In this document: positions 1 to 12,905 of the stretch, in pieces
Position numbering within the stretch: the first letter of the stretch is position 1
Layout of the letters: each line of letters begins with the position of its first letter
Source: an uncultured virus (IMG/VR IMGVR_UViG_3300042402_005558)
Lineage: Duplodnaviria > Heunggongvirae > Uroviricota > Caudoviricetes
Reading direction: 5' to 3' (one strand)
DNA length: 20,000 bases
Virus record (IMG/VR): IMGVR_UViG_3300042402_005558
Program-made: the position numbers and the translations under genes
The notes under the pieces: model-generated
Told to the model about the DNA's origin: nothing
Seen by the model: only the letters and a program-made list of their open reading frames with translations
Database searches by the model: none

Positions 1-1636
1 CCCTAGATCTACGCATTCCTAATCTAGCACCATCAGTAACCGAACTGGTATTATTTTGAAGATACAATGGTAATGAGTTCGCAGTTGCCGAAGCTACGAT
101 CAATTGTCCATTGATTAATGTAGAAACAGCGCCTATCGACATTTTTTCTATCAAGGTACCGACACTATTCGCAACATAAAAATCAAGTCTTCCCGGCACT
201 CTGCCAGTAGTTACCGTAGATCCGGTTTCTACAACTGATCTTATTTGAGCAGAATTTGAATAGTCAGCACCGTCGTAACCTGCAAAATTAAATTTAGCAA
301 GCACGTCGTCGGGTTGAACAGCGATTGGTAATCCTCCAGATTCCCTAGCCTTGGTTAATCTAAAATCTCTGCTTTCCTGGTTGTTATGAATTTGCACCAA
401 TCTATAAGCAGGAGCTGTAGAGAAGTCATCGATATTTTGAAATAATTGCCCATCATTTCTTATTCTTAATCGCGGTCCGAACGTGTTTGTGGTAGATGAT
501 CTAGTCCAGAATTCAAAACCAGCTGGCGCTATAGATGATGTTGGTGTTCCTTGAATTTTTGTAAAAATACCAGCAACTGTGTCATATCCGTCAGTAACCT
601 TGGCACTAGATATAACTGCACCTATTGTGTCACCATCTAACACGTTTAATGGGGATAAATCATTTCCTCGAGCTCTTCTTAGATTAAGAAAAGAAGCCGA
701 TACAGAGTCATCATGGAATTGATCTAATGCTATAGTCCGAAGATTTGTTTCATTGGTTATGAAGGTACCTTCACTGTAAAAATTCGAATCACCCTCAACA
801 GTTACCGCAGTCTGAAAATTAACGGGGGTATCTACAACAATGGTAGTAGATGTTGCAGAAGAAATTAAGTTAGTCTCAATGTTACCACTGACATTACCTG
901 TTAGATCTCCAAAGAATCGTCCGCCGGTTGCATCTACCAACATAGTTGAATCATCTGCAAATACAGAACCTTTAACGTCACCTGTATGATATCCGACAGT
1001 ATTACCGGATAAAGTGCCCGAAAAAATGCCGGCAGTTAATGTATCAGTGCTTGGGTTATATGTTAGGGCGGTATCTGTTCTTAAGGTTTCATTGCCAGTA
1101 GCGGTATCAACGAATGTGATAAAGTGTCCAGTTGCGGTAAAATTAGTAGCAGTAAGTGCTACTGTGGTGGCTGTGGTAGCTGTTGTAGCAGTGTCTGCAT
1201 TACCTGTGACATTGCCTGTGACATTGCCTGTGACATTGCCTGTGACATTGCCTGTGACATTAGAAAATACAGGTCCAACAATTCTGCCCAAAGTAGCATC
1301 TATGAGTAGAGTAGAATCTTCTGCTACTACGTCGCCTTTAAATACTCCGCCTATTGTACCTGTGTTGGTAGTTAGATCTAATTCGGCAGATATACTAGCG
1401 CCTGCGTCATTATATGCGAAAGTTATACCACTGTGTGTGCCGTTGGCAAACAATCCTGCAGCAGCATCCTGTGCATTTTCATCAGTATAACCGGTAATTT
1501 GTATGCCACCTAGTGTGCTGCCATTACCAACATATAATTTTTGTTCATCAGTAACATACAACAGTTCGCCCTGAGCTAGGGCCTGTGTCATGGCTTGTCT
1601 TTGTGCGTTTGTGCCTCTGCGAATCTGTAAGGGCAT
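1..1636 (-). CDS. Tail fibre / receptor-binding-like virion protein (partial, runs off the left edge)
   Basis: ATG at 1636 preceded by AGGAG. Reads MPLQIRRGTNAQRQAMTQALAQGELLYVTDEQKLYVGNG, resembling the Mtd-type N-terminal motif of phage fibres. Followed by (VTGN)5, two KG[DS]VxA[ED]DSTxLxDA repeats and RARG...P..V...D repeats. Open to the window edge by hand translation. Confidence 0.85.
   Translation of the reverse strand, partial: MPLQIRRGTNAQRQAMTQALAQGELLYVTDEQKLYVGNGSTLGGIQITGYTDENAQDAAAGLFANGTHSGITFAYNDAGASISAELDLTTNTGTIGGVFKGDVVAEDSTLLIDATLGRIVGPVFSNVTGNVTGNVTGNVTGNVTGNADTATTATTATTVALTATNFTATGHFITFVDTATGNETLRTDTALTYNPSTDTLTAGIFSGTLSGNTVGYHTGDVKGSVFADDSTMLVDATGGRFFGDLTGNVSGNIETNLISSATSTTIVVDTPVNFQTAVTVEGDSNFYSEGTFITNETNLRTIALDQFHDDSVSASFLNLRRARGNDLSPLNVLDGDTIGAVISSAKVTDGYDTVAGIFTKIQGTPTSSIAPAGFEFWTRSSTTNTFGPRLRIRNDGQLFQNIDDFSTAPAYRLVQIHNNQESRDFRLTKARESGGLPIAVQPDDVLAKFNFAGYDGADYSNSAQIRSVVETGSTVTTGRVPGRLDFYVANSVGTLIEKMSIGAVSTLINGQLIVASATANSLPLYLQNNTSSVTDGARLGMRRSR
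1198..1261 (-). repeat. 12-bp tandem repeat x5 encoding (VTGN)n
   Basis: CATTRCCTGTGA occurs five times on the + strand, in frame within the fibre gene. Confidence 0.95.
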
Positions 1637-3888: not shown

Positions 3889-3962
3889 TGGTGCTCTCAG
3901 GTGGTAATGCTCCACCGTTTCTACATTACCAATGTAGTGTAATGCTTTTATACTATGAGAGC
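3889..3962 (-). tRNA. tRNA-Thr(GGT) with atypical D and T loops
   Basis: Acceptor GCTCTCA/TGAGAGC+ACCA. Anticodon arm CTACA-TTGGTAA-TGTAG. T arm GGTGG-AGCATTA-CCACC. Confidence 0.8.
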
Positions 3963-3966
3963 GGCG

Positions 3967-4041
3967 TGGTCCGGCCAGCAGGAATCGAACCCACATTCGC
4001 GAGGTAGAAGCTCGCTGTATTATCCATTATACTATGGCCAG
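3967..4041 (-). tRNA. tRNA-Arg(TCT)
   Basis: Anticodon arm GCGAG-CTTCTAC-CTCGC, TTCGATT T loop, CCA end. Confidence 0.9.
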
Positions 4042-4042
4042 T

Positions 4043-4618
4043 TTAGTCTATTTGAATGTCTGCGGCTAAGACAAATCTGTATTGATCGCTCTGTACGATT
4101 CCGGGGCGATGCCACATGTTGCCGGGATAGATCAACCAATTACCATCTGCGGGACGCACAAAATATCTGTCATCAGATTGAGGACCCCCCGGTGCCATCT
4201 CTGTACCGCAATAGTCTCGATCTTTAACATCCTCGGGTATGTGTAGATACCAAATACCACTGAGTATTTGTGCGGTGGGGGTAGTAGGATGCCAATGATG
4301 ATGCCAGAGATTATCACGGTTTTCGGCACCCTCGAGATTGGTCATAAAACTCCAGGCCATCATGTTAGATATTTTGGCTTCACGGCCTAGATACATGAAC
4401 GCACTCATCATGAAACTCACACGGTATTTTAACCATACAGCTTCTGATCTAGCAAAGATGTTTTCTTTGGTTTGATACTTAGGCGAATTAGTAAAATAGT
4501 TACCGTCAGCTATGATCGTCTTGATAATTTCACAGGCTTCGAGATCATCTTGCTTGGTGATCAACGATGAGAAATCAAATTTTTGAAAAATTTCATTTTT
4601 GTCTATCGTTTTGTACAT
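4043..4618 (-). CDS. 2OG-Fe(II) oxygenase / cupin-like protein
   Basis: WHHHWH...LSGIWYL...IYPGNMWHRP...RFVLA pattern of a double-stranded beta-helix enzyme. Confidence 0.65.
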   Translation of the reverse strand: MYKTIDKNEIFQKFDFSSLITKQDDLEACEIIKTIIADGNYFTNSPKYQTKENIFARSEAVWLKYRVSFMMSAFMYLGREAKISNMMAWSFMTNLEGAENRDNLWHHHWHPTTPTAQILSGIWYLHIPEDVKDRDYCGTEMAPGGPQSDDRYFVRPADGNWLIYPGNMWHRPGIVQSDQYRFVLAADIQID

Positions 4619-4648
4619 TATGTGTCTTCTGAGAATTTAATAATTTTT

Positions 4649-5185
4649 TCAGCCTTTAAAGCCTATATCTAGTATCTTAAAAATATCTTTGTTTTTCAAA
4701 ATAAAATCTAATACCACAATTACGTCTTGGACATTCATTTTTTTACCCTGTTCATTGCGTGTTCTGTCTGTATCAATAAGGCCGGGTCTAAGATTTATTA
4801 GATAAGGATATTTTAATACGTGTTGATTTTTTGTACAAAAAAGATCCAACTCTTTCTTAACTCGAAAAGACTCTGAAAATTCAAAATTGCCATCTACAAA
4901 AGTGGATCTAAAACTACTTACATTAATTATAATTTTATTTTGATGTTTCCAAAGTTCGTGCATATCTTTAAGTAAATGCAGTTGTGCAGAATCTCCATTA
5001 ACATGTGCGTTATTCACAAAAATATCTGCATCTTCAGATGCATTTACTATTTCTGTTCTACAATCAGGGTCAGTGATATCAAACCCATTACTTTTTGAAA
5101 ATCCAACAACTTCATTGTCTTTAGAAAAATAATCATAAATGCCTTTTCCTAGACCTCTCGTATGTCCGGTAACGATTATTTTCAT
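4649..5185 (-). CDS. Short SDR family oxidoreductase
   Basis: TGHTRGLG Rossmann motif, FVNNA, IINVSS, PGLIDT. Confidence 0.85.
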   Translation of the reverse strand: MKIIVTGHTRGLGKGIYDYFSKDNEVVGFSKSNGFDITDPDCRTEIVNASEDADIFVNNAHVNGDSAQLHLLKDMHELWKHQNKIIINVSSFRSTFVDGNFEFSESFRVKKELDLFCTKNQHVLKYPYLINLRPGLIDTDRTRNEQGKKMNVQDVIVVLDFILKNKDIFKILDIGFKG

Positions 5186-5199
5186 CTTGTTATTTTATT

Positions 5200-5273
5200 T
5201 GGAGCGGGGTAAGAGAATCGAACTCTCCGCATGAGCTTGGAAGGCTCAGGTATTACCACTATACGAACCCCGC
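5200..5273 (-). tRNA. tRNA-Gly(TCC)
   Basis: Anticodon arm TGAGC-CTTCCAA-GCTCA, U73 discriminator, CCA. Confidence 0.95.
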
Positions 5274-5302
5274 ATAGATTTATTTAATCTATAATCTTAA
5301 GA

Positions 5303-5530
5303 CTAGACTTTTTTCAGGTATTCTCGACCCACCGCACCTGACTGCACATCTAACAGTGCTGCCACAGGTGCGTTCATCTGCGTCTGTAGTTCAGCTGCCT
5401 TGTGTCTGCGACTGAGCTCTCTGGCACGAGCTGATGCAATCAGCACCAAGTCAAATCTATTACCGCCTATATTTTCCACACATTTTTCTGTGTCAATTTC
5501 GGGACCACGACTCAGTGATTTATTTTTCAT
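5303..5530 (-). CDS. rpoZ: RNA polymerase omega subunit homologue
   Basis: NRFDLVLIASARAREL...PVAALLDV matches the RpoZ consensus. Confidence 0.85.
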   Translation of the reverse strand: MKNKSLSRGPEIDTEKCVENIGGNRFDLVLIASARARELSRRHKAAELQTQMNAPVAALLDVQSGAVGREYLKKV

Positions 5531-5544
5531 ACGTACCTTATGGT

Positions 5545-5618
5545 TGGTTGCGGGACCCGGAATCGAACCAGGATCTCGAGCTTATGAGACTCGTGAGTTA
5601 CCGTTTCTCTATCCCGCG
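5545..5618 (-). tRNA. tRNA-fMet-like (CAT)
   Basis: Starts CGCGGGA with a C1:A72 mismatch. A11:U24 pair, loop CTCATAA, CCA. Confidence 0.85.
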
Positions 5619-5624
5619 ATAGTT

Positions 5625-6200
5625 TTAAATTAATGCTTCGGCCTGCAATACAGCAACTACATCTTCTGAAAGAGGAATCTCTGTCTTGATGTTGAGTTCT
5701 AACACTTCGTCGTTGATCTTCTGTTTCTGCTTTTTAAGACTCAACACTTCTGCTTTGGCCTGTGCGATCTGTTCTAGTCCTAGCACACCTGTGGTAACTG
5801 TGTCGCTGTAGCCGTAGATGCGACTGCGAGTAGATTCGCTCTTGTCGTTGCGGATTTTGTCCAGCTTGCCTTTGATTACATCTAGAGCAGTGATTTCTGT
5901 GGCCTTGGCCAATTCCTCTAGCTGACCAATACGCTTGTCGATAAAGGCTGCTTTGGCCAATGCAGTGTCGATACCACTGGCGGTATTGGCTGTGCCTACT
6001 AGAGCACGGATATTGTACAGAGCCATGGTCAGCTTCTGACGGCGGCCGTCATTTTCTACCAAGGTGGAGTTAGCTTTAGTGATAACGTCCTCGACTGTTT
6101 GGAACTCATTGATCTCTACAGTGAGATCAATTTTGATGTTCTTGATTGCTTCTGTGATGCTGTGTTGTACAGCATTGGCCTTGCGCAGTGTGATGTTCAT
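5625..6200 (-). CDS. Long helical coiled-coil protein, DIP1984-family-like architecture by eye
   Basis: 191 aa, helical. YNIRALVGTAN..IDTALAK and KKQKQKINDEVLELNIKTEI resemble the DIP1984/DUF6847 pattern. Not verified by search. Confidence 0.6.
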   Translation of the reverse strand: MNITLRKANAVQHSITEAIKNIKIDLTVEINEFQTVEDVITKANSTLVENDGRRQKLTMALYNIRALVGTANTASGIDTALAKAAFIDKRIGQLEELAKATEITALDVIKGKLDKIRNDKSESTRSRIYGYSDTVTTGVLGLEQIAQAKAEVLSLKKQKQKINDEVLELNIKTEIPLSEDVVAVLQAEALI

Positions 6201-6217
6201 TGATTTTCTCTCTTTTT

Positions 6218-6486
6218 AAAAATATAACGGTTTGACGAAAGGTCAAGTAAAAGACCGGACAAAGGACAACGGAAGGTTTGTAATCTTCCTTTGACAATGT
6301 GCAATTAACAATACACAGAGGTCCATATATTTCCGATTAACAAATGACATTCTATTAGGGATCGGATCACACAAACACGTTCCAATGTTCAGTTGGATTG
6401 TAAGTTCGGAGTAAGCATGAAGCTCACGCCTTGTGTCTTTTCTCATCTACCCTTCATCTCGCCGGTCACGTTATTTCTAACGCAAC
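6218..6486 (-). ncRNA. Structured leader / ncRNA with 7-nt periodic motifs
   Basis: Long-range pairings ATAACG/CGTTAT, GATGAAGGGT/ACCTTTCGTC, AAAAGAC/GTCTTTT and TCCGAT/ATCGGA enclose runs of NNNNTGN heptamers. Confidence 0.7.
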
Positions 6487-6492
6487 AAAACA

Positions 6493-6521
6493 AGTATAAC
6501 ATTCTTTACTGTGTTTGTCAA
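6493..6521 (-). promoter_or_regulatory. sigma70-type promoter
   Basis: TTGACA-17nt-TATACT with extended TGn. Confidence 0.85.
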
Positions 6522-6537
6522 TACTTTTTGGTAAAAT

Positions 6538-6611
6538 TGGTGCCCCTTGACAGAATCGAACTGCCGTAACCTGATTACAAAACAGGTGTAATACCATTAT
6601 ACTAAAAGGGC
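6538..6611 (-). tRNA. tRNA-Thr(TGT)
   Basis: Anticodon arm CCTGT-TTTGTAA-TCAGG, T loop, ACCA. Confidence 0.92.
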
Positions 6612-6628
6612 CTAATACTATATATCTC

Positions 6629-6702
6629 TGGTGGAGGATGAGAGAATCGAACTCTCAATCTCGGCTTGCAAAGCCGATGTTATCCCATTTAACTAATCCC
6701 CC
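6629..6702 (-). tRNA. tRNA-Ala(TGC)
   Basis: G3:U70 pair, loop TTTGCAA, ACCA. Confidence 0.95.
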
Positions 6703-6708
6703 AGAATT

Positions 6709-6888
6709 TTATTGCTTGACTGCGTCGGGCTTGCGACCTTTTTCACGTTTAGGTTGGATGGCCGCACATAGTTCAGCGTCAATCATAGCACGTTTCCACT
6801 GCCCCTTTTGATGTGGATCTTGGAATGTTGACAGTGCAAGGCTGGCCTTGAGTGGCTTTGACATCTTGTAGTTCTTAGTAGGTTTCAT
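6709..6888 (-). CDS. Small basic hypothetical protein (59 aa)
   Basis: AAGGA RBS before ATG 6888 (MKPTKNYK...). The longer ORF-track start lies inside tRNA-Ser. Confidence 0.7.
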   Translation of the reverse strand: MKPTKNYKMSKPLKASLALSTFQDPHQKGQWKRAMIDAELCAAIQPKREKGRKPDAVKQ

Positions 6889-6907
6889 ATATTTCCTTTT
6901 TAAAATT

Positions 6908-6993
6908 TGGCGGAAGACCGGGGACTCGAACCCCGAAACCGTTGCCGATCGACGGCTTAGCAAGCCGCTCCAATACCATTATGGGAGTCTTCC
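6908..6993 (-). tRNA. tRNA-Ser(GCT)
   Basis: Loop TTGCTAA, long variable arm, G73, CCA. Confidence 0.93.
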
Positions 6994-7000
6994 GTATTAC

Positions 7001-7074
7001 TGGTACCTCGTGACAGAATCGAACTGCCGTATCCCACTTGTAAGGAGGGCATTCTACCATTAAATTAACGAGGC
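7001..7074 (-). tRNA. tRNA-Val(TAC)
   Basis: Loop CTTACAA with one U:U mismatch in the anticodon stem, ACCA. Confidence 0.9.
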
Positions 7075-7081
7075 ATAACCA

Positions 7082-7242
7082 TTAAAAAATAACATTACAC
7101 CCTATGGGATGAGACGGATTTCTGAGTGGAGTTCGATTCTCCTCATCAGCCATTGTCCACGGTTATTTCAGAAGAGTAAGATGGCCCTATTCTTCATAAG
7201 TCTATGCGTCCATAGACGATACCCGCTAATGCTATTTCTTAA
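7082..7242 (-). ncRNA. Unidentified multi-hairpin RNA between tRNAs
   Basis: 16-bp closing helix TTAAGAAATAGCATTA/TAATGTTATTTTTTAA whose G:U pairs form only on the minus strand. Inner hairpins include GTCTATG-GACG-CATAGAC and GAAGA...TCTTC. Confidence 0.7.
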
Positions 7243-7326
7243 TGGTGCCCCAGGAGAGACTCGAACTCTCACGCCTTGCGACATCGGCTTCTAAGACCGA
7301 CGTGTCTACCATTCCACCACCGGGGC
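7243..7326 (-). tRNA. tRNA-Leu(TAG)
   Basis: Loop CTTAGAA, long variable arm, ACCA. Confidence 0.95.
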
Positions 7327-7340
7327 TAACTACAACAACT

Positions 7341-7369
7341 ATTATACGACAATTTTAGTCTCTTGTCAA
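7341..7369 (-). promoter_or_regulatory. sigma70-type promoter internal to the tRNA array
   Basis: TTGACA-17nt-TATAAT, 14 nt before tRNA-Leu(TAG). Confidence 0.85.
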
Positions 7370-8052: not shown

Positions 8053-8136
8053 TGGTGCGAGTGGAGGGACTCGAACCCTCATGCCCTAAGACGGGAGATT
8101 TTAAGTCTCCTGAGTATACCATTTCTCCACACTCGC
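8053..8136 (-). tRNA. tRNA-Leu(TAA)
   Basis: Anticodon arm GGAGA-CTTAAAA-TCTCC, variable arm, ACCA. Confidence 0.95.
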
Positions 8137-8140
8137 ATAT

Positions 8141-8224
8141 ATAAAAACACACTAGCCACCGCAATCCGCAATGCCGCAGGCTAGGCCCTAAGAGCTACGC
8201 TCGTTCTTTCACTAGAGTGTTATA
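8141..8224 (-). ncRNA. Small structured spacer RNA
   Basis: Closing helix AACACTCTAG/CTAGTGTGTT. Inner GAGC-GTA-GCTC hairpin and ATTGCGG repeats. Confidence 0.45.
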
Positions 8225-8300
8225 TGGTGCTGCCTCCAGGAATCGAACCTGGTTCAACGGTTCTTCAGACCGCCGCTATGACCACATCAGCTAAAGCAGC
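8225..8300 (-). tRNA. tRNA-Phe(GAA)
   Basis: Anticodon arm GCGGT-CTGAAGA-ACCGT, ACCA. Confidence 0.93.
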
Positions 8301-8305
8301 ATTTT

Positions 8306-8380
8306 TGGGGAGAATGATGGGAATCGAACCCACGCGACGAGAATCACAATCTCGGATGCTACCATTACATCACAGACTCC
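8306..8380 (-). tRNA. tRNA-His(GTG)
   Basis: Encoded G-1:C73, loop TTGTGAT. Two mismatches in the acceptor stem. Confidence 0.9.
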
Positions 8381-8386
8381 ATTGTT

Positions 8387-8461
8387 TGGTACCACTGCCA
8401 CGAGTCGAACGTGAACTTAAACTTTCGCAAAGTTTCGTGATATCCCTTTCACTACAGTGGT
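8387..8461 (-). tRNA. tRNA-Arg(GCG)
   Basis: Perfect acceptor ACCACTG/CAGTGGT, anticodon arm AAACT-TTGCGAA-AGTTT, T loop TTCGACT, ACCA. Confidence 0.85.
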
Positions 8462-8623
8462 ATCTTTTTCCAAAGCATCTTTTCGCATCTTAAAAACACG
8501 ATGTTCATTGGGTCGATGAACTATGAGATATTCTTCTCCGTCTATAACTTCCACAGCACGGACGTCATCACAGACAAAACGTTCATTATTCATACGATTT
8601 TTAAAAGTCATAGGTTTCATCAT
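8417..8623 (-). CDS. Small hypothetical protein overlapping tRNA-Arg(GCG)
   Basis: AAGGAG RBS, 68 aa. The last 45 nt lie inside the tRNA. Confidence 0.7.
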   Translation of the reverse strand: MMKPMTFKNRMNNERFVCDDVRAVEVIDGEEYLIVHRPNEHRVFKMRKDALEKDTTVVKGISRNFAKV

Positions 8624-8636
8624 AATCTCCTTGTAA

Positions 8637-8711
8637 TGGCCGGTCCGGAGAGATTCGAACTCCCGACAGCTGGTTTCGAAGACCAGAACTCTTCCACTGA
8701 GCTACGGACCG
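8637..8711 (-). tRNA. tRNA-Arg(TCG)
   Basis: Anticodon arm CTGGT-CTTCGAA-ACCAG, GCCA. Confidence 0.93.
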
Positions 8712-8713
8712 AT

Positions 8714-8798
8714 GTTCCCGAGATGCCGCTTACCCGCGACGGCACGATCATCGATGACCTTATAGGCGGCCGGCTACACTTACCGCGATGATCGGAAC
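8714..8798 (-). ncRNA. Small GC-rich structured RNA
   Basis: Closing GTTCC/GGAAC, stems GATCATCG/CGATGATC and TGCCG/CGGCA. Motif CGCG(G)GTAAG occurs twice. Confidence 0.55.
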
Positions 8799-8802
8799 TC
8801 TG

Positions 8803-8876
8803 TGGCAGAGGGTACTGGGATCGAACCAGTGATGACAGAGTCAAAGTCTGTAGTGTTACCGCTACACTAACCCCCA
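8803..8876 (-). tRNA. tRNA-Gln(TTG)
   Basis: Anticodon arm ACAGA-CTTTGAC-TCTGT, U1:U72 mismatch, GCCA. Confidence 0.92.
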
Positions 8877-8886
8877 ACAGATTGAA

Positions 8887-9099
8887 TTTGTAAGTAGTGC
8901 TACCACGTTATCAGCACCATTCACCCGATTATACAAGTCCGGACGGGAGTCGGTACGTCACTTGGGATTCATCCAGCGTGGATTCCATCTATCGCCTATC
9001 CATTACAGATAGGCCAGGCATCGAACCCGCTTGCCTTCTACTGCACAGTACCTTCGAAGAATACTGAACAGCGTGACTTCACTTGCTGACACTTACAAA
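8887..9099 (-). ncRNA. Unidentified ~210-nt multibranch RNA
   Basis: Nested helices TTTGTAAGT/ACTTACAAA, TGTCAGCA/TGCTGATA and GTCAC/GTGAC. Hairpins CAGTATT/GGTACTG and GCCTATC/GATAGGC. T-loop-like GGGTTCGATGCC. Confidence 0.7.
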
Positions 9100-9102
9100 A
9101 CT

Positions 9103-9178
9103 TGGTCTCCCTACTAGGATTCGAACCTAGACCACACGGCCCCAAACCGCGGATGCAACCAGATAACACTTTAGAGAG
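9103..9178 (-). tRNA. tRNA-Pro(TGG)
   Basis: Anticodon arm CGCGG-TTTGGGG-CCGTG, C1:G72, ACCA. Confidence 0.92.
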
Positions 9179-9183
9179 ATAAT

Positions 9184-9258
9184 TGGTGGTAATGGAAAGA
9201 GTCGAACTTTCACTGTACACCGTATGAAGGTGCTGCACTACCATTATGCTACATTACC
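9184..9258 (-). tRNA. tRNA-Met(CAT), elongator type (Ile2 not excluded)
   Basis: Anticodon arm GCACC-TTCATAC-GGTGT, G1:C72, ACCA. Confidence 0.85.
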
Positions 9259-9325
9259 ATATAGAAACACACTAATCTTACTCTGCACGGCAACTGACTG
9301 GCGTTCAGAAAAATGTGTTTTTATA
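9259..9325 (-). ncRNA. Small structured spacer RNA
   Basis: Closing helix TATAAAAACACA/TGTGTTTCTATA, the same flank design as 8141-8224. Confidence 0.4.
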
Positions 9326-9400
9326 TGGTAGGGGCACAGAGAATCGAACTCTGATTAATAGGTTAAAAGCCTACTACTTTAGCCGTTAAGTTATACCCCC
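9326..9400 (-). tRNA. tRNA-Lys(TTT)
   Basis: Anticodon arm GTAGG-CTTTTAA-CCTAT, ACCA. Confidence 0.93.
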
Positions 9401-9429
9401 GACATCTTATCACTCTTGTCACTTGTCAT
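9391..9429 (-). CDS. 12-aa mini-ORF MTSDKSDKMSGV
   Basis: AAAGGAG RBS 7 nt before the ATG. The stop codon lies inside the 5' end of tRNA-Lys. Confidence 0.5.
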   Translation of the reverse strand: MTSDKSDKMSGV

Positions 9430-9451
9430 GACAGATCTCCTTTTTAAAAAT

Positions 9452-9525
9452 TGGTTCCCAGAACAAGAATCGAACTTGTAATGGCCGGTTATCAGCCGAC
9501 TGTTATACCATTTAACTATCCGGGA
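9452..9525 (-). tRNA. tRNA-Ile(GAT)
   Basis: Anticodon arm GTCGG-CTGATAA-CCGGC, ACCA. Confidence 0.93.
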
Positions 9526-9531
9526 ATACAT

Positions 9532-9621
9532 TGGCGGAAGTGGTAGGATTCGAACCCACGGCCCCTTGCGGAACTTCAGTTTTCAAGACTGCTGCCTTAA
9601 GCCAGACTCAGCCACACTTCC
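9532..9621 (-). tRNA. tRNA-Ser(TGA)
   Basis: Loop CTTGAAA, long variable arm, GCCA. Confidence 0.95.
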
Positions 9622-9627
9622 ATAACT

Positions 9628-9719
9628 TGATGGATGCTGTTGGAATCGAACCAACCTTCATGCTCGAAACATGTCATGGGCAAGCAATTTATGCCCACTC
9701 GTACCAACTATTACATCCA
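9628..9719 (-). ncRNA. tRNA-like RNA without a canonical anticodon loop or D stem
   Basis: Acceptor GGATGT/GCATCC, T arm GTTGG-TTCGATT-CCAAC, stem TGGGCA-9nt-TGCCCA, stem CATG/CATG. Ends ATCA. Confidence 0.65.
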
Positions 9720-9723
9720 AACT

Positions 9724-9801
9724 TGGTACTCCTCCCCGGACTCGAACCGGGACGATTTTCCTTTTGAGAGAAACGCCTCATACCAATTGGGCTAGAGGGG
9801 C
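9724..9801 (-). tRNA. tRNA-Leu(CAA) with short variable loop
   Basis: Anticodon arm TTTCT-CTCAAAA-GGAAA, 5-nt variable loop, ACCA. Confidence 0.85.
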
Positions 9802-9808
9802 ATAAATT

Positions 9809-10402
9809 TTATTTTTGTTGTAAAATAATCAAAGATTCTTCTTGTGAGATTATCTCAAAATTACTAGATAATCTTTGAACGATATCAATTACGTCTTCAA
9901 ATCTACTAGGATGATCTGTTTCAAGAAACGGTCGATGATCATGAAATATCACGTAACCATTTTTTGATAAGAATTTTGTCCAGTAATTTACATTATTTTC
10001 TAACGTAGGATTTCTATGAAGACCATCTTCGAAATAGACATCAATCGGTGTTCCCCAATTTTTAAAATTATCAGGGCTTTTACCTTTATGGAAAAATATA
10101 TTTTTGTAATCTTTTAATAACAATTCTACATTTTCTTTAGTTCTAGGGTTCTCACCTAGAGACTCTAGCAACATAAGACTTACTGATTGCTTATGCCTGT
10201 CGTGTCTGTCATTATAATCATCTATAGTATGAACGATTACTTGTGGATTAGAAGATGCCATTATAGCAGCACTTCCACCGAGAAAAGTTCCTACTTCTAA
10301 AATTATTGAATTTGATTTTAATCCAGATACGAAATTGAATAAAAATAATTTTTCATTATTAGACAATAACGCATATTTTTCATAAACAGGTAGCATAGAC
10401 AT
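9809..10402 (-). CDS. Class I SAM-dependent methyltransferase (Methyltransf_24-like)
   Basis: ILEVGTFLGGS, DVYFEDGLH, GYVIFHD. Start moved to ATG 10402 because the longer ORF begins inside tRNA-Cys. Confidence 0.88.
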   Translation of the reverse strand: MSMLPVYEKYALLSNNEKLFLFNFVSGLKSNSIILEVGTFLGGSAAIMASSNPQVIVHTIDDYNDRHDRHKQSVSLMLLESLGENPRTKENVELLLKDYKNIFFHKGKSPDNFKNWGTPIDVYFEDGLHRNPTLENNVNYWTKFLSKNGYVIFHDHRPFLETDHPSRFEDVIDIVQRLSSNFEIISQEESLIILQQK

Positions 10403-10413
10403 ATTTACTCTAC

Positions 10414-10491
10414 TGGAGTGTCGGGTCAGATTTGAACTGACGGTTTTACGGATTTGCAATCCGTTGCAATGGGCCTCTCTGCCACCGACAC
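10414..10491 (-). tRNA. tRNA-Cys(GCA) copy 1
   Basis: Anticodon arm ACGGA-TTGCAAA-TCCGT, U73, CCA. Confidence 0.92.
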
Positions 10492-10495
10492 ATAA

Positions 10496-10587
10496 TGGTA
10501 CCAGCGGAGGGAATCGAACCCTCTCAAGAACGCTAATCTGGCGCTAAAAGGTTTATAAAACCTCTCTGACTACCAAGTCTCGCTGGC
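10496..10587 (-). tRNA. Atypical tRNA with TAT anticodon (Ile-like)
   Basis: Acceptor GCCAGCG/CGCTGGT, D arm GACT-TGGT-AGTC, anticodon arm AGAGGT-TTTATAA-ACCTTT, long variable arm, ACCA. Confidence 0.75.
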
Positions 10588-10592
10588 ATTGT

Positions 10593-10670
10593 TGGAAGTG
10601 CGGGTGGGATTTGAACCCACGGCTTTAGAGTTTTGCAGACTCTTGCATTGGGCCTCTCTGCCACCGCACT
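10593..10670 (-). tRNA. tRNA-Cys(GCA) copy 2
   Basis: Anticodon arm AGAGT-CTGCAAA-ACTCT, U73, CCA. Confidence 0.92.
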
Positions 10671-10671
10671 A

Positions 10672-11256
10672 TTAATTGAAATTGAAATTAATTAACATTC
10701 TGTTATTGTATTTTGGCACAGATCCTGTATGATAACGGTGCCCGTCAAACAAAACAGCTCTACCTTTTCTAGGTTCAACTCTACGTTCCACAGTCTTTTT
10801 ACTGTAACTAATATCATTTACATATTTCTCTTTGAAGATAACAGTGTCTCCATCGCTGTCGTTGACATAGTAAATTAATGTCATATGCCTGTTCATATCG
10901 TCAACATGAGGAACATTATAAAATTCTCCAAACACTGAATTTTTATAAATCATTACGGCTCTTGCTCTGATGATATAATTAACCTTTACTTTAAATTTGT
11001 CTTCTACAAAATACATTATAGGCCTAACTAGATCGCCATACCCACTTACCTTTGCATTTTCTATGATCAATCTATGTACGAAGCCGTCGGTTTCTTTTAT
11101 ATTGCTATCGTTAGCAATAAATTTAGCGTTCTCTTCTTGTGAATAAGAAACACCCGGATTATAATACCAGGGAAACTCCAATGAAGAAAAATGTTTTTCA
11201 ATTTCATCTTCATATGACTTAGGTAAGAAATTGTCTAGTATAATGATGTCGTTCAT
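10672..11256 (-). CDS. 2OG-Fe(II) oxygenase family protein
   Basis: PHVD...IYYVNDSDGDT...PRKGRAVLFDG..YH...RMLINFN (HxD...H...R). AGGA RBS. Confidence 0.85.
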   Translation of the reverse strand: MNDIIILDNFLPKSYEDEIEKHFSSLEFPWYYNPGVSYSQEENAKFIANDSNIKETDGFVHRLIIENAKVSGYGDLVRPIMYFVEDKFKVKVNYIIRARAVMIYKNSVFGEFYNVPHVDDMNRHMTLIYYVNDSDGDTVIFKEKYVNDISYSKKTVERRVEPRKGRAVLFDGHRYHTGSVPKYNNRMLINFNFN

Positions 11257-11332
11257 GCAATATCCTCTAAATTATTGCTCGATAGCATAATATAGCAATT
11301 ACCGGGCCGAGCATATTACTTATAATACTAAT

Positions 11333-11407
11333 TGGCATACCCTGAGGGATTCGAACCCCCACTAGCGGTTTTGGAGACCGTTGTGCTGCCGTTAACACTA
11401 AGGGCAT
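11333..11407 (-). tRNA. tRNA-Trp(CCA)
   Basis: Loop CTCCAAA, G73, CCA. Confidence 0.93.
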
Positions 11408-11413
11408 ATAACT

Positions 11414-11487
11414 TGGAGCGGGATAGGAGAATCGAACTCCTGACTAAACCTTGGCAAGGTTTCGTTTGACCATTAAACTAATCCCGC
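11414..11487 (-). tRNA. tRNA-Gly(GCC)
   Basis: Anticodon arm AAACC-TTGCCAA-GGTTT, U73, CCA. Confidence 0.95.
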
Positions 11488-11493
11488 ATTATA

Positions 11494-11568
11494 TGGAAGA
11501 CCGTAGGGGAGTCGAACCCCTCTTACCAGGATGAAAACCTAGTGTCCTAACCGATAGACGAACGGTCC
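11494..11568 (-). tRNA. tRNA-Glu(TTC)
   Basis: Anticodon arm CTAGG-TTTTCAT-CCTGG, CCA. Confidence 0.92.
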
Positions 11569-11576
11569 ATAAAACT

Positions 11577-11652
11577 TGGCTCCCCAGCGTGGGATCGAAC
11601 CACGGACACCTTGATTAACAGTCAAGTGCAACTACCGCTGTGCTACTGGGGA
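11577..11652 (-). tRNA. tRNA-Asn(GTT)
   Basis: Anticodon arm CTTGA-CTGTTAA-TCAAG, U1:A72, GCCA. Confidence 0.95.
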
Positions 11653-11658
11653 ATAAAC

Positions 11659-11734
11659 TGGCGCCTCGTAGGGGAGTCGAACCCCTGTATTCCGCTAGAC
11701 AGGCGGATATAATAGACCGTTATATGAACGAGGC
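11659..11734 (-). tRNA. tRNA-Asp(GTC)
   Basis: Anticodon arm TCCGC-CTGTCTA-GCGGA, GCCA. Confidence 0.93.
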
Positions 11735-11740
11735 AAAACT

Positions 11741-11829
11741 TGGTGGAGCCTGAAGGAATCGAACCTAACTGCCAGCCACCCTACATATTAAGGCAACGGA
11801 TTTACAGTCCGCCGTAGGGATCAAGCTCC
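11741..11829 (-). tRNA. Non-canonical tRNA-Tyr(GTA)-like RNA (no D arm, 9/3 fold)
   Basis: 9-bp acceptor GGAGCTTGA/TCAGGCTCC, anticodon arm GCGGA-CTGTAAA-TCCGT, T arm AGG-TTCGATT-CCT, ACCA. Confidence 0.75.
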
Positions 11830-11838
11830 AAATTTGTA

Positions 11839-11954
11839 ACACTCTCCATCGACTATGTCAATCTGTCCTCCTTGTAAAGTGGAGTAGGAGAGTGTGTATT
11901 AAAGAACACAGTCTGCGACATCTCAGTCCAGGTCAGGTCTATGCTCTTTAATAC
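11839..11954 (-). ncRNA. Two adjacent long-stem RNA elements
   Basis: GTATTAAAGAGCATAG/CTGTGTTCTTTAATAC (11896-11954) and ACACTCTCC/GGAGAGTGT (11839-11895). Confidence 0.5.
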
Positions 11955-11955
11955 G

Positions 11956-12050
11956 CTGTAATTTTTCGCTCTAGAAGAAGAGTTTCATCCTACAGGCCGC
12001 CCGTTCGCTCCGTGTTTATAGTGCGGAGCCAGGACCTCGTTTCCTGATAT
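11956..12050 (-). ncRNA. Three-hairpin structured RNA at the start of the tRNA array
   Basis: CAGGA-AACGAGG-TCCTG, GCTCCG-11nt-CGGAGC, and CTGTAG...TTACAG enclosing CTCT/AGAG. Confidence 0.55.
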
Positions 12051-12065
12051 TCACACTTTGTGCTA

Positions 12066-12245
12066 TTAGTTTACATTAAACGTCGACAATTTTGCCAACG
12101 ATTCGTGATATGTTCTAGCACGTTCAAACTTATCTTGAATAAGTTTTTGAAGTTGTTCTTTCGAAAGTTCATTTCGATTAAAAGCAGCTTCATAAGCCTG
12201 TTCAACGACTCGTTCATTTAATTTTTTGTAATCTATCTGTTCCAT
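12066..12245 (-). CDS. 59-aa helical hypothetical protein, first gene after the attenuator
   Basis: AAGGA RBS. Reads MEQIDYKKLNERVVEQAYEAAF...STFNVN. Below the ORF-track size cutoff. Confidence 0.7.
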   Translation of the reverse strand: MEQIDYKKLNERVVEQAYEAAFNRNELSKEQLQKLIQDKFERARTYHESLAKLSTFNVN

Positions 12246-12257
12246 TTTTTCCTTTAT

Positions 12258-12292
12258 AAAAACAAAAACCCCAGGGTGTTTATTCCTGGGGT
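12258..12292 (-). terminator. Attenuator terminator hairpin
   Basis: ACCCCAGG-AATAAACAC-CCTGGGGT followed by TTTTGTTTTT. Confidence 0.9.
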
Positions 12293-12319
12293 CCTTTGAA
12301 GTAGCTGTGTATTTTATGT

Positions 12320-12475
12320 TTACACTAACATCTCCACGGACCCCGGTAATAGCTCTGGTGTACGATCATTAGATATACTATCAATCGCGAGCCAATATGA
12401 GGGCATAAAGCCTCCCACCTGGGCTACGGATTTACAAGATATATGTAATGATACGTGTTTCATTGTCTTCTTCAT
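12320..12475 (-). CDS. Putative attenuator leader peptide (51 aa, all 20 amino acids)
   Basis: MKKTMKHVSLHISCKSVAQVGGFMPSYWLAIDSISNDRTPELLPGSVEMLV. AAGGA upstream, alternative start at Met5 (12463). Codons 44-46 carry GGGGTCC, complementary to the terminator 5' arm. Confidence 0.7.
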   Translation of the reverse strand: MKKTMKHVSLHISCKSVAQVGGFMPSYWLAIDSISNDRTPELLPGSVEMLV

Positions 12476-12514
12476 TTCCTTGAAAGTCACACACTATTTT
12501 TAGTGCATGTGTTA

Positions 12515-12543
12515 ATTATACATTTATTTAGTCTCTGTGTCAA
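12515..12543 (-). promoter_or_regulatory. sigma70-type promoter P2 of the tRNA operon
   Basis: TTGACA-17nt-TATAAT with TAAATA inside the spacer. Confidence 0.88.
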
Positions 12544-12598
12544 CCTCTATTTGCACTTCTGGCAAAAAAGTTTTGACTCTTTGCTAAACACAACTGCT

Positions 12599-12627
12599 AG
12601 TATACGGTCTTTTTATTTATGTGTCAA
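12599..12627 (-). promoter_or_regulatory. sigma70-type promoter P1 of the tRNA operon
   Basis: TTGACA-17nt-TATACT with ATAAATA inside the spacer. Confidence 0.85.
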
Positions 12628-12656
12628 CCTAGATCATTGCAGTTTATGTGGCTTTT

Positions 12657-12905
12657 TTACAACACATCATTGGTCTGTGAGATCAGCAGATGCTTGCCAA
12701 TTTCAAACAGTCCGACACTGCCTGGTAGATCCAAGGCACTGACATGTATCTGTGCCTCGCCATCCTTGTCTAAACTGCAGGCCACTAGTTCTCGAATCTC
12801 GCCTCGCTCTATCTGATCTCGCACAGCATCTATGACTTCTAAAAGTGATTGCTTGCGCTCTTCATCTTCCTTGGCCTTGGGATCAAAGGTATAGACATTG
12901 TTCAT
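12657..12905 (-). CDS. Hypothetical protein
   Basis: 82-aa ORF starting 3 nt after the clpP stop. Confidence 0.75.
   Translation of the reverse strand: MNNVYTFDPKAKEDEERKQSLLEVIDAVRDQIERGEIRELVACSLDKDGEAQIHVSALDLPGSVGLFEIGKHLLISQTNDVL

Follow-up and report, generated by a model that had tools for sequence, protein, structure and literature searches.

The closest described counterparts of the element treated here are the leader-peptide attenuators of enterobacteria, which control amino-acid operons and are exemplified by the trp, his, leu, thr, pheA and ilv leaders. Two other kinds of regulatory leader are relevant in this context: T-box riboswitches, which bind one uncharged tRNA directly, without an open reading frame (ORF), and control aminoacyl-tRNA synthetase and amino-acid genes, and the erm-type leaders, which are ribosome-stalling attenuators of antibiotic-resistance genes. 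The mef/mel(msr) leader, as described in the accessible part of PMC4335068, is likewise a ribosome-stalling attenuator upstream of antibiotic-resistance genes. Here we analyse a 20,000-nt stretch of DNA (the window) from an uncultured virus of the class Caudoviricetes (IMG/VR record IMGVR_UViG_3300042402_005558), in which positions 12,258 to 12,627 hold what is probably a ribosome-mediated (leader-peptide) transcription attenuator that would sense overall decoding speed or tRNA supply, placed ahead of a phage tRNA array. The case for it is built on sequence comparison and in silico folding. A full-text literature search, with the sources seen in part, found no leader-peptide attenuator on phage tRNA genes and no all-amino-acid leader.

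The genes around the element all lie on the minus strand of the window: a ClpP-like protease gene (13484-12909) is followed by an 82-codon ORF (12905-12657) and then by the leader region, which comprises the following features.

12599..12627, minus strand: promoter P1, TTGACA-17-TATACT, 11 of 12 consensus positions, aligning with promoters of relatives.
12515..12543, minus strand: promoter P2, TTGACA-17-TATAAT, 12 of 12 consensus positions, aligned in relatives.
12488..12508, minus strand: 5' stem-loop found by folding, at the likely start of the transcript from promoter P2.
12320..12475, minus strand: leader ORF, with a first ATG at 12475 (51 codons), a conserved ATG at 12463 (47 codons) and the stop codon TAA at 12322-12320.
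12353..12463, minus strand: proposed sensor part of the leader ORF, 37 codons with all 20 amino acids, located 5' of the antiterminator 5' arm.
12353..12369, minus strand: nearly invariant nucleotide motif ATGATCGTACACCAGAG, codons for Asp-Arg-Thr-Pro-Glu, with synonymous sites also conserved.
12288..12344, minus strand: antiterminator, a long three-tier hairpin of helices P1, P2 and P3, recognized by folding and comparison.
12258..12292, minus strand: intrinsic terminator consisting of ACCCCAGG, a 9-nt loop, CCTGGGGT and a T-run, recognized by folding and covariation.
12066..12245, minus strand: 59-codon ORF (orf59), starting 13 nt past the T-run, the first gene reached by readthrough and conserved in relatives.

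Most of this anatomy had been proposed in an initial annotation made from the sequence of the window alone, and it withstood re-examination. Both consensus promoters ahead of the ORF are present where they had been placed, and a recount of the 51-codon ORF again gives 34 distinct codons and all 20 amino acids within 41 residues, with residue 41 (Glu, GAG at 12355-12353) completing the set. Relatives conserve the second ATG (12463) as the start codon, and the resulting 47-codon frame has all 20 amino acids in its first 37 codons. The pairing of GGGGTCC with GGACCCC, and its overlap with the 5' arm of a strong terminator, hold at the level of both sequence and folding. Specifically, helix P1 of the antiterminator is formed by GGGGTCC (12344-12338) and GGACCCC (12294-12288), the middle helix P2 by TGGAG and CTTCA, and the apical helix P3, which contains the stop codon, by GTGTA and TACAC; the hairpin as a whole (12344-12288) folds at -24.6 kcal/mol (z -5.3), a stability attained by 0 of 200 shuffled sequences. 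In the terminator, ACCCCAGG (12292-12285) pairs with CCTGGGGT (12275-12268) and is followed by TTTTTGTTTTT up to position 12258 (-14.3 kcal/mol); a simple terminator scan overlooks this structure because its loop is 9 nt. The two structures have CCCC (12291-12288) in common, as part of the antiterminator 3' arm and of the terminator 5' arm, and the stop codon lies 28 nt upstream of the terminator stem. Regarding the downstream contents, the 59-aa ORF and the tRNA array announced by the initial annotation are present, but its 'several ncRNAs' were not confirmed; the 235-nt stretch after orf59 contains a degenerate promoter (11861-11833) and then a tRNA-Tyr-like gene (11830-11744).

Database searches place the leader region outside described families. 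Neither orf59 nor the leader ORF matches any Pfam or PHROG family. Rfam yields no match in the leader region and none within 11650-12700 up to E = 5, the hits at gathering threshold being exclusively tRNAs; with no T-box or other non-tRNA match, a T-box riboswitch was ruled out. GenBank phages gave no DNA match to a 901-nt region or to a 117-nt conserved core, and no protein match to orf59, and so yielded no cultured carrier. The record nearest to the window, G001 (5.4 kb), gave no match either.

Relatives were therefore sought among IMG/VR viral contigs and collected in two sets by pattern, and the counts given for these sets refer to the matches listed (at least 120 rows each). A search with the ClpP-like protein retrieved 71 loci, in about 25 of which a small ORF directly downstream was detected with tblastn; it is open in 16 of 16 distinct homologues examined, and the promoters, the ORF, the hairpin arms and the terminator all align. 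Set 1 unites a terminator-pattern scan, the ClpP-derived loci and the window, totalling 148 instances, 114 of them unique. An open frame, on whose conservation the initial annotation had made its proposal depend, is found in 109 of the 114, with 34-50 codons and a stop codon 21-31 nt upstream of GGACCC; three of the others are chance matches without an ORF (L080, L112 and L142) and two are ended by a contig edge. Set 2 comes from a scan for the coding motif ATGATCGYACACCAGA, which is independent of the RNA structure, and consists of 100 unique stretches: 84 belong to the family by a loose terminator rule, 13 are unrelated, L219 and L295 were assigned to the family by eye, and L307 is truncated. 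The set-1 pattern is also borne by 63 of these 100. A promoter matching at least 11 of 12 consensus positions occurs upstream of the leader in 67 of 74 relatives, and the arms of the 5' stem-loop vary yet remain complementary, as judged by eye in the alignment and left uncounted.

The central property of the leader ORF is its amino-acid content. All 20 amino acids are present in 97 of the 109 unique leaders of set 1, 19 in eight and 18 in four, and the full set also occurs in 78 of the 81 complete ORFs of set 2. Controls drawn from the same loci behave differently: 2.3% of 12,568 segments of 47 residues from long ORFs and 13 of 589 other ORFs of 42-50 codons contain all 20, and random peptides do so in 3.1% of cases with the pooled composition of the family and in 3.0% with the composition of the proteome. 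Leader ORFs upstream of tRNA arrays are thus more diverse in amino acids than expected (97/109 against 2-3%), as the initial annotation had asked to be checked. Its worry that the full set might have arisen by chance is answered too: shuffling residues within alignment columns leaves 16% of peptides with all 20 (27% at maximum in 500 shuffles), compared with the 89% observed, which 0 of the 500 reach, so the property is conserved independently of position. The 107 distinct peptides fall into 38 clusters at 70% identity, and in 28 clusters every member has the full set. Cys occurs exactly once in 95 of the 107 peptides, distributed over at least 17 columns, and is missing from three, with 35 expected if the columns were independent. 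Tyr stands at column 31 (42 peptides) or at column 44 (46 peptides), never at both, and 18 of the 19 others have it elsewhere; His and Tyr behave like Cys, being mostly present once and at shifting positions. Much-diverged members keep all 20 amino acids, including L010 and L019 with their 34-35 codons, and in 85 of 108 relatives the complete set is located upstream of the antiterminator 5' arm. These comparisons argue that the leader ORF is under selection for a full amino-acid set, and for such selection on amino-acid or codon content to act, the ORF must be translated.

A more conventional interpretation would see here an ordinary small-protein gene with its own promoter and terminator, the hairpin merely stabilising the 3' end and the tRNAs being transcribed by unregulated leak-through or from other promoters. 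Small phage proteins are indeed common, a strong promoter precedes the first tRNA in some relatives (counted below), and two elements of the leader are conserved by residue, namely the Asp-Arg-Thr-Pro-Glu block and a Trp that 105 of 107 peptides have at the same column. However, the synonymous sites are as conserved as the residues: conserved residues keep their codons (ACA in 85/85, CCA in 85/89, GAT in 101/101, GCG in 49/50 and ATA in 44/46), whereas identity among the neighbouring proteins is 41-84%. Past the Asp-Arg-Thr-Pro-Glu block, conservation of the peptide ceases, and the C-terminus is read in two main frames, the RNA motif RGGGTCC being in codon phase 0 in 53, in phase 2 in 52 and in phase 1 in three of 108 leaders. 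In all 108, the stop codon (TAA in 100, TAG in eight) nevertheless falls 11-28 nt past the start of the 5' arm and 21-31 nt ahead of GGACCC. The tail of the leader hence appears to be conserved as RNA, not as peptide. A folded protein, moreover, gives no reason for accommodating all 20 residues in 34-50 codons or for single Cys, His and Tyr residues that shift position yet persist, and it leaves aside the lack of a Pfam or PHROG match as well as the 3' foot of the hairpin, which is shared in part with the terminator and shows covariation with either partner. We consider the small-protein interpretation unlikely.

Codon usage in the leaders differs from that of the phage genes (an index similar to the codon adaptation index is 0.62 versus 0.74, standard deviation 0.05). 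Glu is encoded by GAG in 88% of cases in leaders and 20% in phage genes, and leaders avoid NNT in four-codon boxes. Two-codon boxes are T-ending in the leaders (GAT 99%, TAT 95%, CAT 89%), but four-codon boxes are not (GCT 3%, ACT 6%, CCT 4%). This skew could stem from sensitivity to wobble decoding or from RNA structure.

Arrest peptides typically have conserved Trp, Asp and Pro residues, and in its conserved Trp, Asp and Pro positions the leader does resemble TnaC and SecM. The Trp and the Pro-containing Asp-Arg-Thr-Pro-Glu block might accordingly make the ribosome respond, by stalling, to a small molecule or factor instead of to tRNA supply in general, which would make the element a specific nascent-peptide arrest sensor. 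Unlike in TnaC and SecM, spacing in the phage leader is variable (12 to 14 residues from Trp to Pro, and a distance from the Pro codon to the 5' arm that also varies, as judged by eye), and it was on account of the varying Trp-to-Pro distance that the idea of a TnaC-like spacing was dropped. The block is conserved at the nucleotide level, third positions included, no Rho-dependent design is evident, and the all-20 property with its moving single residues would be left unaccounted for. We regard a specific arrest sensor as very improbable.

The second line of evidence concerns the two RNA structures. In set 1, the terminator and the 3' arm of the antiterminator are fixed by the search pattern, which leaves the 5' arm as the sole informative part; 108 of 109 leaders have it, with the outermost pair being GC in 55, AU in 42, GU in four and other in two. 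Both helices can be assessed in alignment A2 (86 rows, 80 distinct), the rows of which were picked by the coding motif. There, 98.2% of the cells of helix P1 and 99.1% of those of the terminator are paired, and changes on both sides affect 4 of the 7 pairs of helix P1 and 5 of the 7 of the terminator; none of 500 shuffles attains these values for either helix, and slid controls for both helices are paired at 64-72% or less. Column 104, which is common to the two helices, forms GC in 38, AU in 36 and GU in three rows with column 33, and CG in 40, UG in 28 and UA in 12 rows with column 121. One relative, L247, has altered all four strands jointly (GGAGTCT / AGACTCC / CTCCAGG / CCTGGAG), and L304 and L310 carry the variants GGGTTC / GAACCC. 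The initial annotation had called for a covariation check of the GGGGTCC/GGACCCC pairing in homologues, and the pairing is indeed kept there with compensatory changes.

Folding of individual sequences gives a concordant picture: the fold is closed by helix P1 in 99 of 102 unique sequences, with a mean energy of -23.8 kcal/mol for the antiterminator versus -12.3 for the terminator, and the inner segment of the antiterminator has a mean z of -2.9 and a negative z in all 123 cases. When 5' and 3' halves were swapped between relatives, the native combination was more stable than the chimeras in 112 of 123, many arm variants staying complementary. We relied on folding sequence by sequence, counts of named structures, this swap test and a covariance model because the variable inner hairpin cannot be aligned by sequence; RNAalifold run on a codon-based alignment of the ORF returned nothing. 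The covariance model, built from nine sequences, matched 86 of 87 family sources (L247 was missed) and 0 of 13 unrelated loci. Alignment A4, made with this model and counted after 23 reverse-strand matches had been dropped (86 rows, 73 distinct), has 92.1% of cells paired (shuffle maximum 84.3%) and 16 of 20 pairs changed on both sides (shuffle maximum 12), values biased towards the structure, to which A4 was fitted. Altogether, the base helix of the antiterminator and the terminator both appear to be under selection as mutually exclusive structures. The short leaders of L010 (about 4900-5060) and L019 have a lengthened base helix, which in L010 is GGGGTTCCG/CGGGACCCC.

A fixed partial terminator might simply set the ratio of leader product to tRNA transcript, with the alternative pairing having no regulatory use. 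Contigs from public RNA libraries show merely that the region is present, and no run contains half of the sampled words: record 22 of X3, from a relative about 95% identical, covers 12253-12554, and record 16 of X2 covers 12036-12263. One contig (record 32 of X4, 12202-12337) bridges the terminator, as a partial terminator would permit, although the RNA nature of that run is a guess. Against this stands the shared nucleotide, whose covariation with both partners points to selection on both exclusive helices. Furthermore, the antiterminator is about 11 kcal/mol stabler than the terminator, so the latter could rarely form unless the 5' arm were removed, most simply by a ribosome. We attach hardly any probability to a purely constitutive setting of this kind.

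The terminated leader RNA of about 250 nt could conceivably also be made for its own sake, as a trans-acting or dual-function small RNA with a constitutive terminator, a role that would be compatible with attenuation. The transcript, bounded by two consensus promoters and a strong terminator, is highly structured (-79.8 kcal/mol, z -5.0) and conserved throughout at the nucleotide level, and trans roles have been reported for the attenuator RNA of the Sinorhizobium trp leader in the portion of that source available to us. Nevertheless, no Rfam family is matched, and a small RNA would leave without reason both the preserved all-20 open frame and the fixed position of its stop codon in the hairpin; we deem it a slim prospect.

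The reading that we prefer, a ribosome-mediated attenuator, agrees with the amino-acid operon attenuators in much of its layout. The element has a promoter-proximal, conserved short ORF, an intrinsic terminator before the regulated genes, and a conserved, mutually exclusive antiterminator that shares bases with the terminator 5' arm; its stop codon is placed such that a ribosome finishing translation removes the antiterminator 5' strand and one stalled upstream leaves it free. By geometry, a ribosome terminating at the stop codon would mask the 5' strand of the antiterminator but not the terminator in all 108 leaders, given the usual footprint sizes of ribosomes. In contrast to those attenuators, codons for a particular sensed amino acid are not enriched in the 109 leaders, 97 of which have all 20 amino acids instead, the rare ones mostly once; the leader, at 47 codons, is longer; the regulated genes are phage tRNAs rather than biosynthetic enzymes; and no clear 1:2 'protector' pairing was demonstrated, so that readthrough should be the untranslated default. 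T-box riboswitches resemble the element in that a choice between terminator and antiterminator reports tRNA status, but the phage element would read tRNA supply via the ribosome and for all amino acids at once. The mef/mel(msr) and erm leaders share with it the principle of a stalled ribosome that switches an RNA structure and induces downstream genes, sensing trouble with translation and not one metabolite; those leaders, however, use drug-specific nascent-peptide stalling, whereas here the coverage of amino acids is complete and the output is tRNA. Finally, a ribosome stopping a few bases before a Rho-independent terminator represses it, according to the accessible part of PMC4824070. The two cases, as far as that part goes, are alike in that a ribosome close behind the polymerase changes terminator efficiency, and differ in that the stop codon here is 28 nt before the stem and that the ribosome, by taking away a competing helix, would promote termination.

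The proposed mechanism would operate as follows. Two strong promoters would initiate a transcript carrying the 47-codon ORF, whose last eight or so codons and stop codon lie within the antiterminator 5' half, while the 3' foot of the hairpin, GGACCCC, shares four C with the terminator 5' arm. An undelayed ribosome would occupy or melt the antiterminator 5' half while the polymerase makes the terminator, so that transcription would end and a short leader RNA be released. If the ribosome were delayed in the first 37 or so codons, or not loaded at all, the stabler antiterminator would form first and the polymerase would read through into orf59 and the proximal tRNA genes. Phage tRNA synthesis would in this way rise whenever a charged tRNA of whatever kind ran short or decoding became slow overall; with all 20 amino acids represented in the sensor part, the rare ones mostly in a single copy, a shortage affecting any of them could be sensed. 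Being synthesised ahead of the terminator and far stabler than it, the antiterminator should let naked RNA read through, and termination would need removal of the 5' strand; as the last codons and the stop codon are placed in that very strand, a ribosome is the obvious agent. With 28 nt separating the stop codon from the stem, a ribosome at the stop should not hinder the terminator. What we infer from this arrangement is how the events follow one another, in which direction regulation works and what triggers it physiologically; the anatomy and its conservation, the selection for a full amino-acid set, the covariation of both helices and the linkage to tRNA arrays are shown by the sequence comparison itself.

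The genomic context fits a role in the expression of tRNA genes. The position ahead of a tRNA array, proposed by the initial annotation for the window, recurs in the family: among the matches listed, a same-strand array follows within 3 kb in each of the 70 family loci whose sequence extends 1200 nt or more downstream, beginning 167-1003 nt (median 430) past the terminator, and the three chance pattern matches have no tRNA array. In relatives whose first tRNA comes within about 170-250 nt, orf59 is absent. Upstream genes vary, the element being tens of kilobases away from the ClpP-like gene in some large contigs; as the upstream neighbourhood is not constant, the stable partner of the element is the tRNA array. 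In the window, the array and its promoters are arranged as follows.

11833..11861, minus strand: degenerate promoter-like site TTGACA-17-TACAAA before the first tRNA, 10 of 12 consensus positions.
8053..11830, minus strand: proximal tRNA block, without an internal promoter of at least 11 of 12 consensus positions.
3892..7369, minus strand: distal tRNAs with their own consensus promoters (7369-7341, 6521-6493 and 3887-3859).

The proximal block reads Tyr-like, Asp, Asn, Glu, Gly, Trp, Cys, Ile, Cys, Leu, Ser, Ile, Lys, Met, Pro, Gln, Arg, Arg, His, Phe, Leu. ARAGORN reports 28 tRNA genes and at default settings misses two, the Tyr-like gene at 11744-11830 and tRNA-Thr(GGT) at 3892-3962, both on the minus strand; with these added, the array has 30 genes and covers all 20 amino acids. 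Of the 28 distinct phage anticodons in the window, 23 have a codon within the 37-codon sensor part. In seven loci, nine residues are missing from the leader; six of the nine are without a matching tRNA in the DNA available for these loci, compared with about three expected, and three contradict such a correspondence, the arrays being only partly covered.

Several observations weigh against the attenuator reading or narrow its reach. The leader is not the sole route to the tRNAs: the distal genes have their own promoters at 7369, 6521 and 3887. The initial annotation had already cautioned that the promoter at 7341-7369 could serve the distal tRNAs independently, and a consensus promoter is present there in addition to the two others, so the distal tRNAs are probably not gated by the leader. 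In addition, 17 of 74 relatives have a promoter of at least 11 of 12 consensus positions after the terminator and ahead of the first tRNA. The residue completing the set is Glu in 52 of 96 all-20 leaders, 9-11 nt before the 5' arm, and a ribosome stalled at this codon may already cover the first bases of the arm; codons at least 9 nt upstream of the arm contain all 20 amino acids in 71 of 108 leaders, and those at least 12 nt upstream in only 23. A pure codon sampler would need neither the position-fixed Trp nor the conserved Asp-Arg-Thr-Pro-Glu block. The ribosome-binding site is weak, with a Shine-Dalgarno-like core at a spacing of 3-13 nt in 28 of 108 leaders, mostly at 11-13 nt. RNAalifold applied to MAFFT alignments recovered terminator pairs only and not the antiterminator. 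With no convincing anti-antiterminator pairing of the 1:2 type found, untranslated RNA should read through. Lastly, counts from the two sets are not independent events, since both were found by pattern, overlap, and have members akin to each other. We still consider a ribosome-mediated attenuator the probable function of the element.

As to initiation of translation, the rate of Shine-Dalgarno-like cores in long ORFs of the phage is similar (61 of 231). A leaderless mRNA is suggested for the short variants, in which no more than 7 nt separate the -10 box from the ATG. The motif ATGATCGT (12353-12369) can pair with the first leader codons (12440-12460), and clades use different partners; the duplex of the N-terminal codons with ATGATCGT has a mean z of -2.2, with 57% of leaders below -2, and RNAalifold gives no consensus for it. 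The pairing could conceivably act as a pause or timing hairpin that synchronises ribosome and polymerase.

A more ambitious version of the attenuator reading, which we put forward tentatively and give slightly less than even chances, is that of a universal sensor of tRNA supply working as a kinetic race. After a start synchronised by the pause hairpin, the translation of some 37 fixed and rather rare codons representing all amino acids would compete with completion of the terminator, and any hungry codon would call up the complete phage tRNA set; the device would be autoregulated, self-limiting and widespread in uncultured large phages. Hungry codons could be caused by starvation, by codon mismatch with the host, or by host defences that cut tRNA; a link to PrrC- or PARIS-type nucleases is speculation. 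The element bears on the purpose of tRNA genes in phages and on the control of these genes. If the attenuator reading is true, it would provide a direct feedback rule for phage tRNA genes, with tRNA made when decoding is slow, and would extend leader-peptide attenuation from one or a few amino acids and biosynthetic operons to an all-amino-acid sensor of RNA genes. The signature, a short all-20 ORF with mobile single rare residues, is usable as a search key and could lead to similar sensors elsewhere, and the switch, at about 250 nt, could act as a general reporter of translation stress.

Some further features of the array and its surroundings may be mentioned. The promoter site about 35 nt before the first tRNA matches the consensus in relatives such as L015, L019, L135 and L146, and the copy in the window (TACAAA) is without the final T; lineages seem to differ in having an additional, leader-independent array promoter. 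The promoter at 7341-7369 (minus strand) lies directly 5' of tRNA-Leu (7326), and the one at 6493-6521 (minus strand) is followed by a leader-like 5' hairpin and a 67-codon ORF (6446-6243); when the ORFs after the promoters at 6521 and 3887 were read, no similar terminator switch was seen. The gene at 11744-11830 encodes a long-arm tRNA with a GTA (Tyr) anticodon loop and scores 28.6 bits on the Rfam tRNA-Sec model. The 'tRNA-Ile (tat)' reported by ARAGORN at 10496-10587 (minus strand), between two tRNA-Cys genes, has an unusual length of 92 nt, and the Rfam tRNA model is silent on it at gathering threshold. Three protein genes are situated within the array on the minus strand (9809-10459, 10672-11256 and 4043-4618) and encode a methyltransferase-domain protein and two 2OG-Fe(II) oxygenase-like proteins, the second of which is below the Pfam cut-off; these may be nucleic-acid modification enzymes. 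At the edge of the window, an ORF of 545 residues (2-1636, minus strand), open at that edge, has an N-terminal Mtd_N domain (major tropism determinant, 43 bits), a type of domain that occurs in targets of diversity-generating retroelements.

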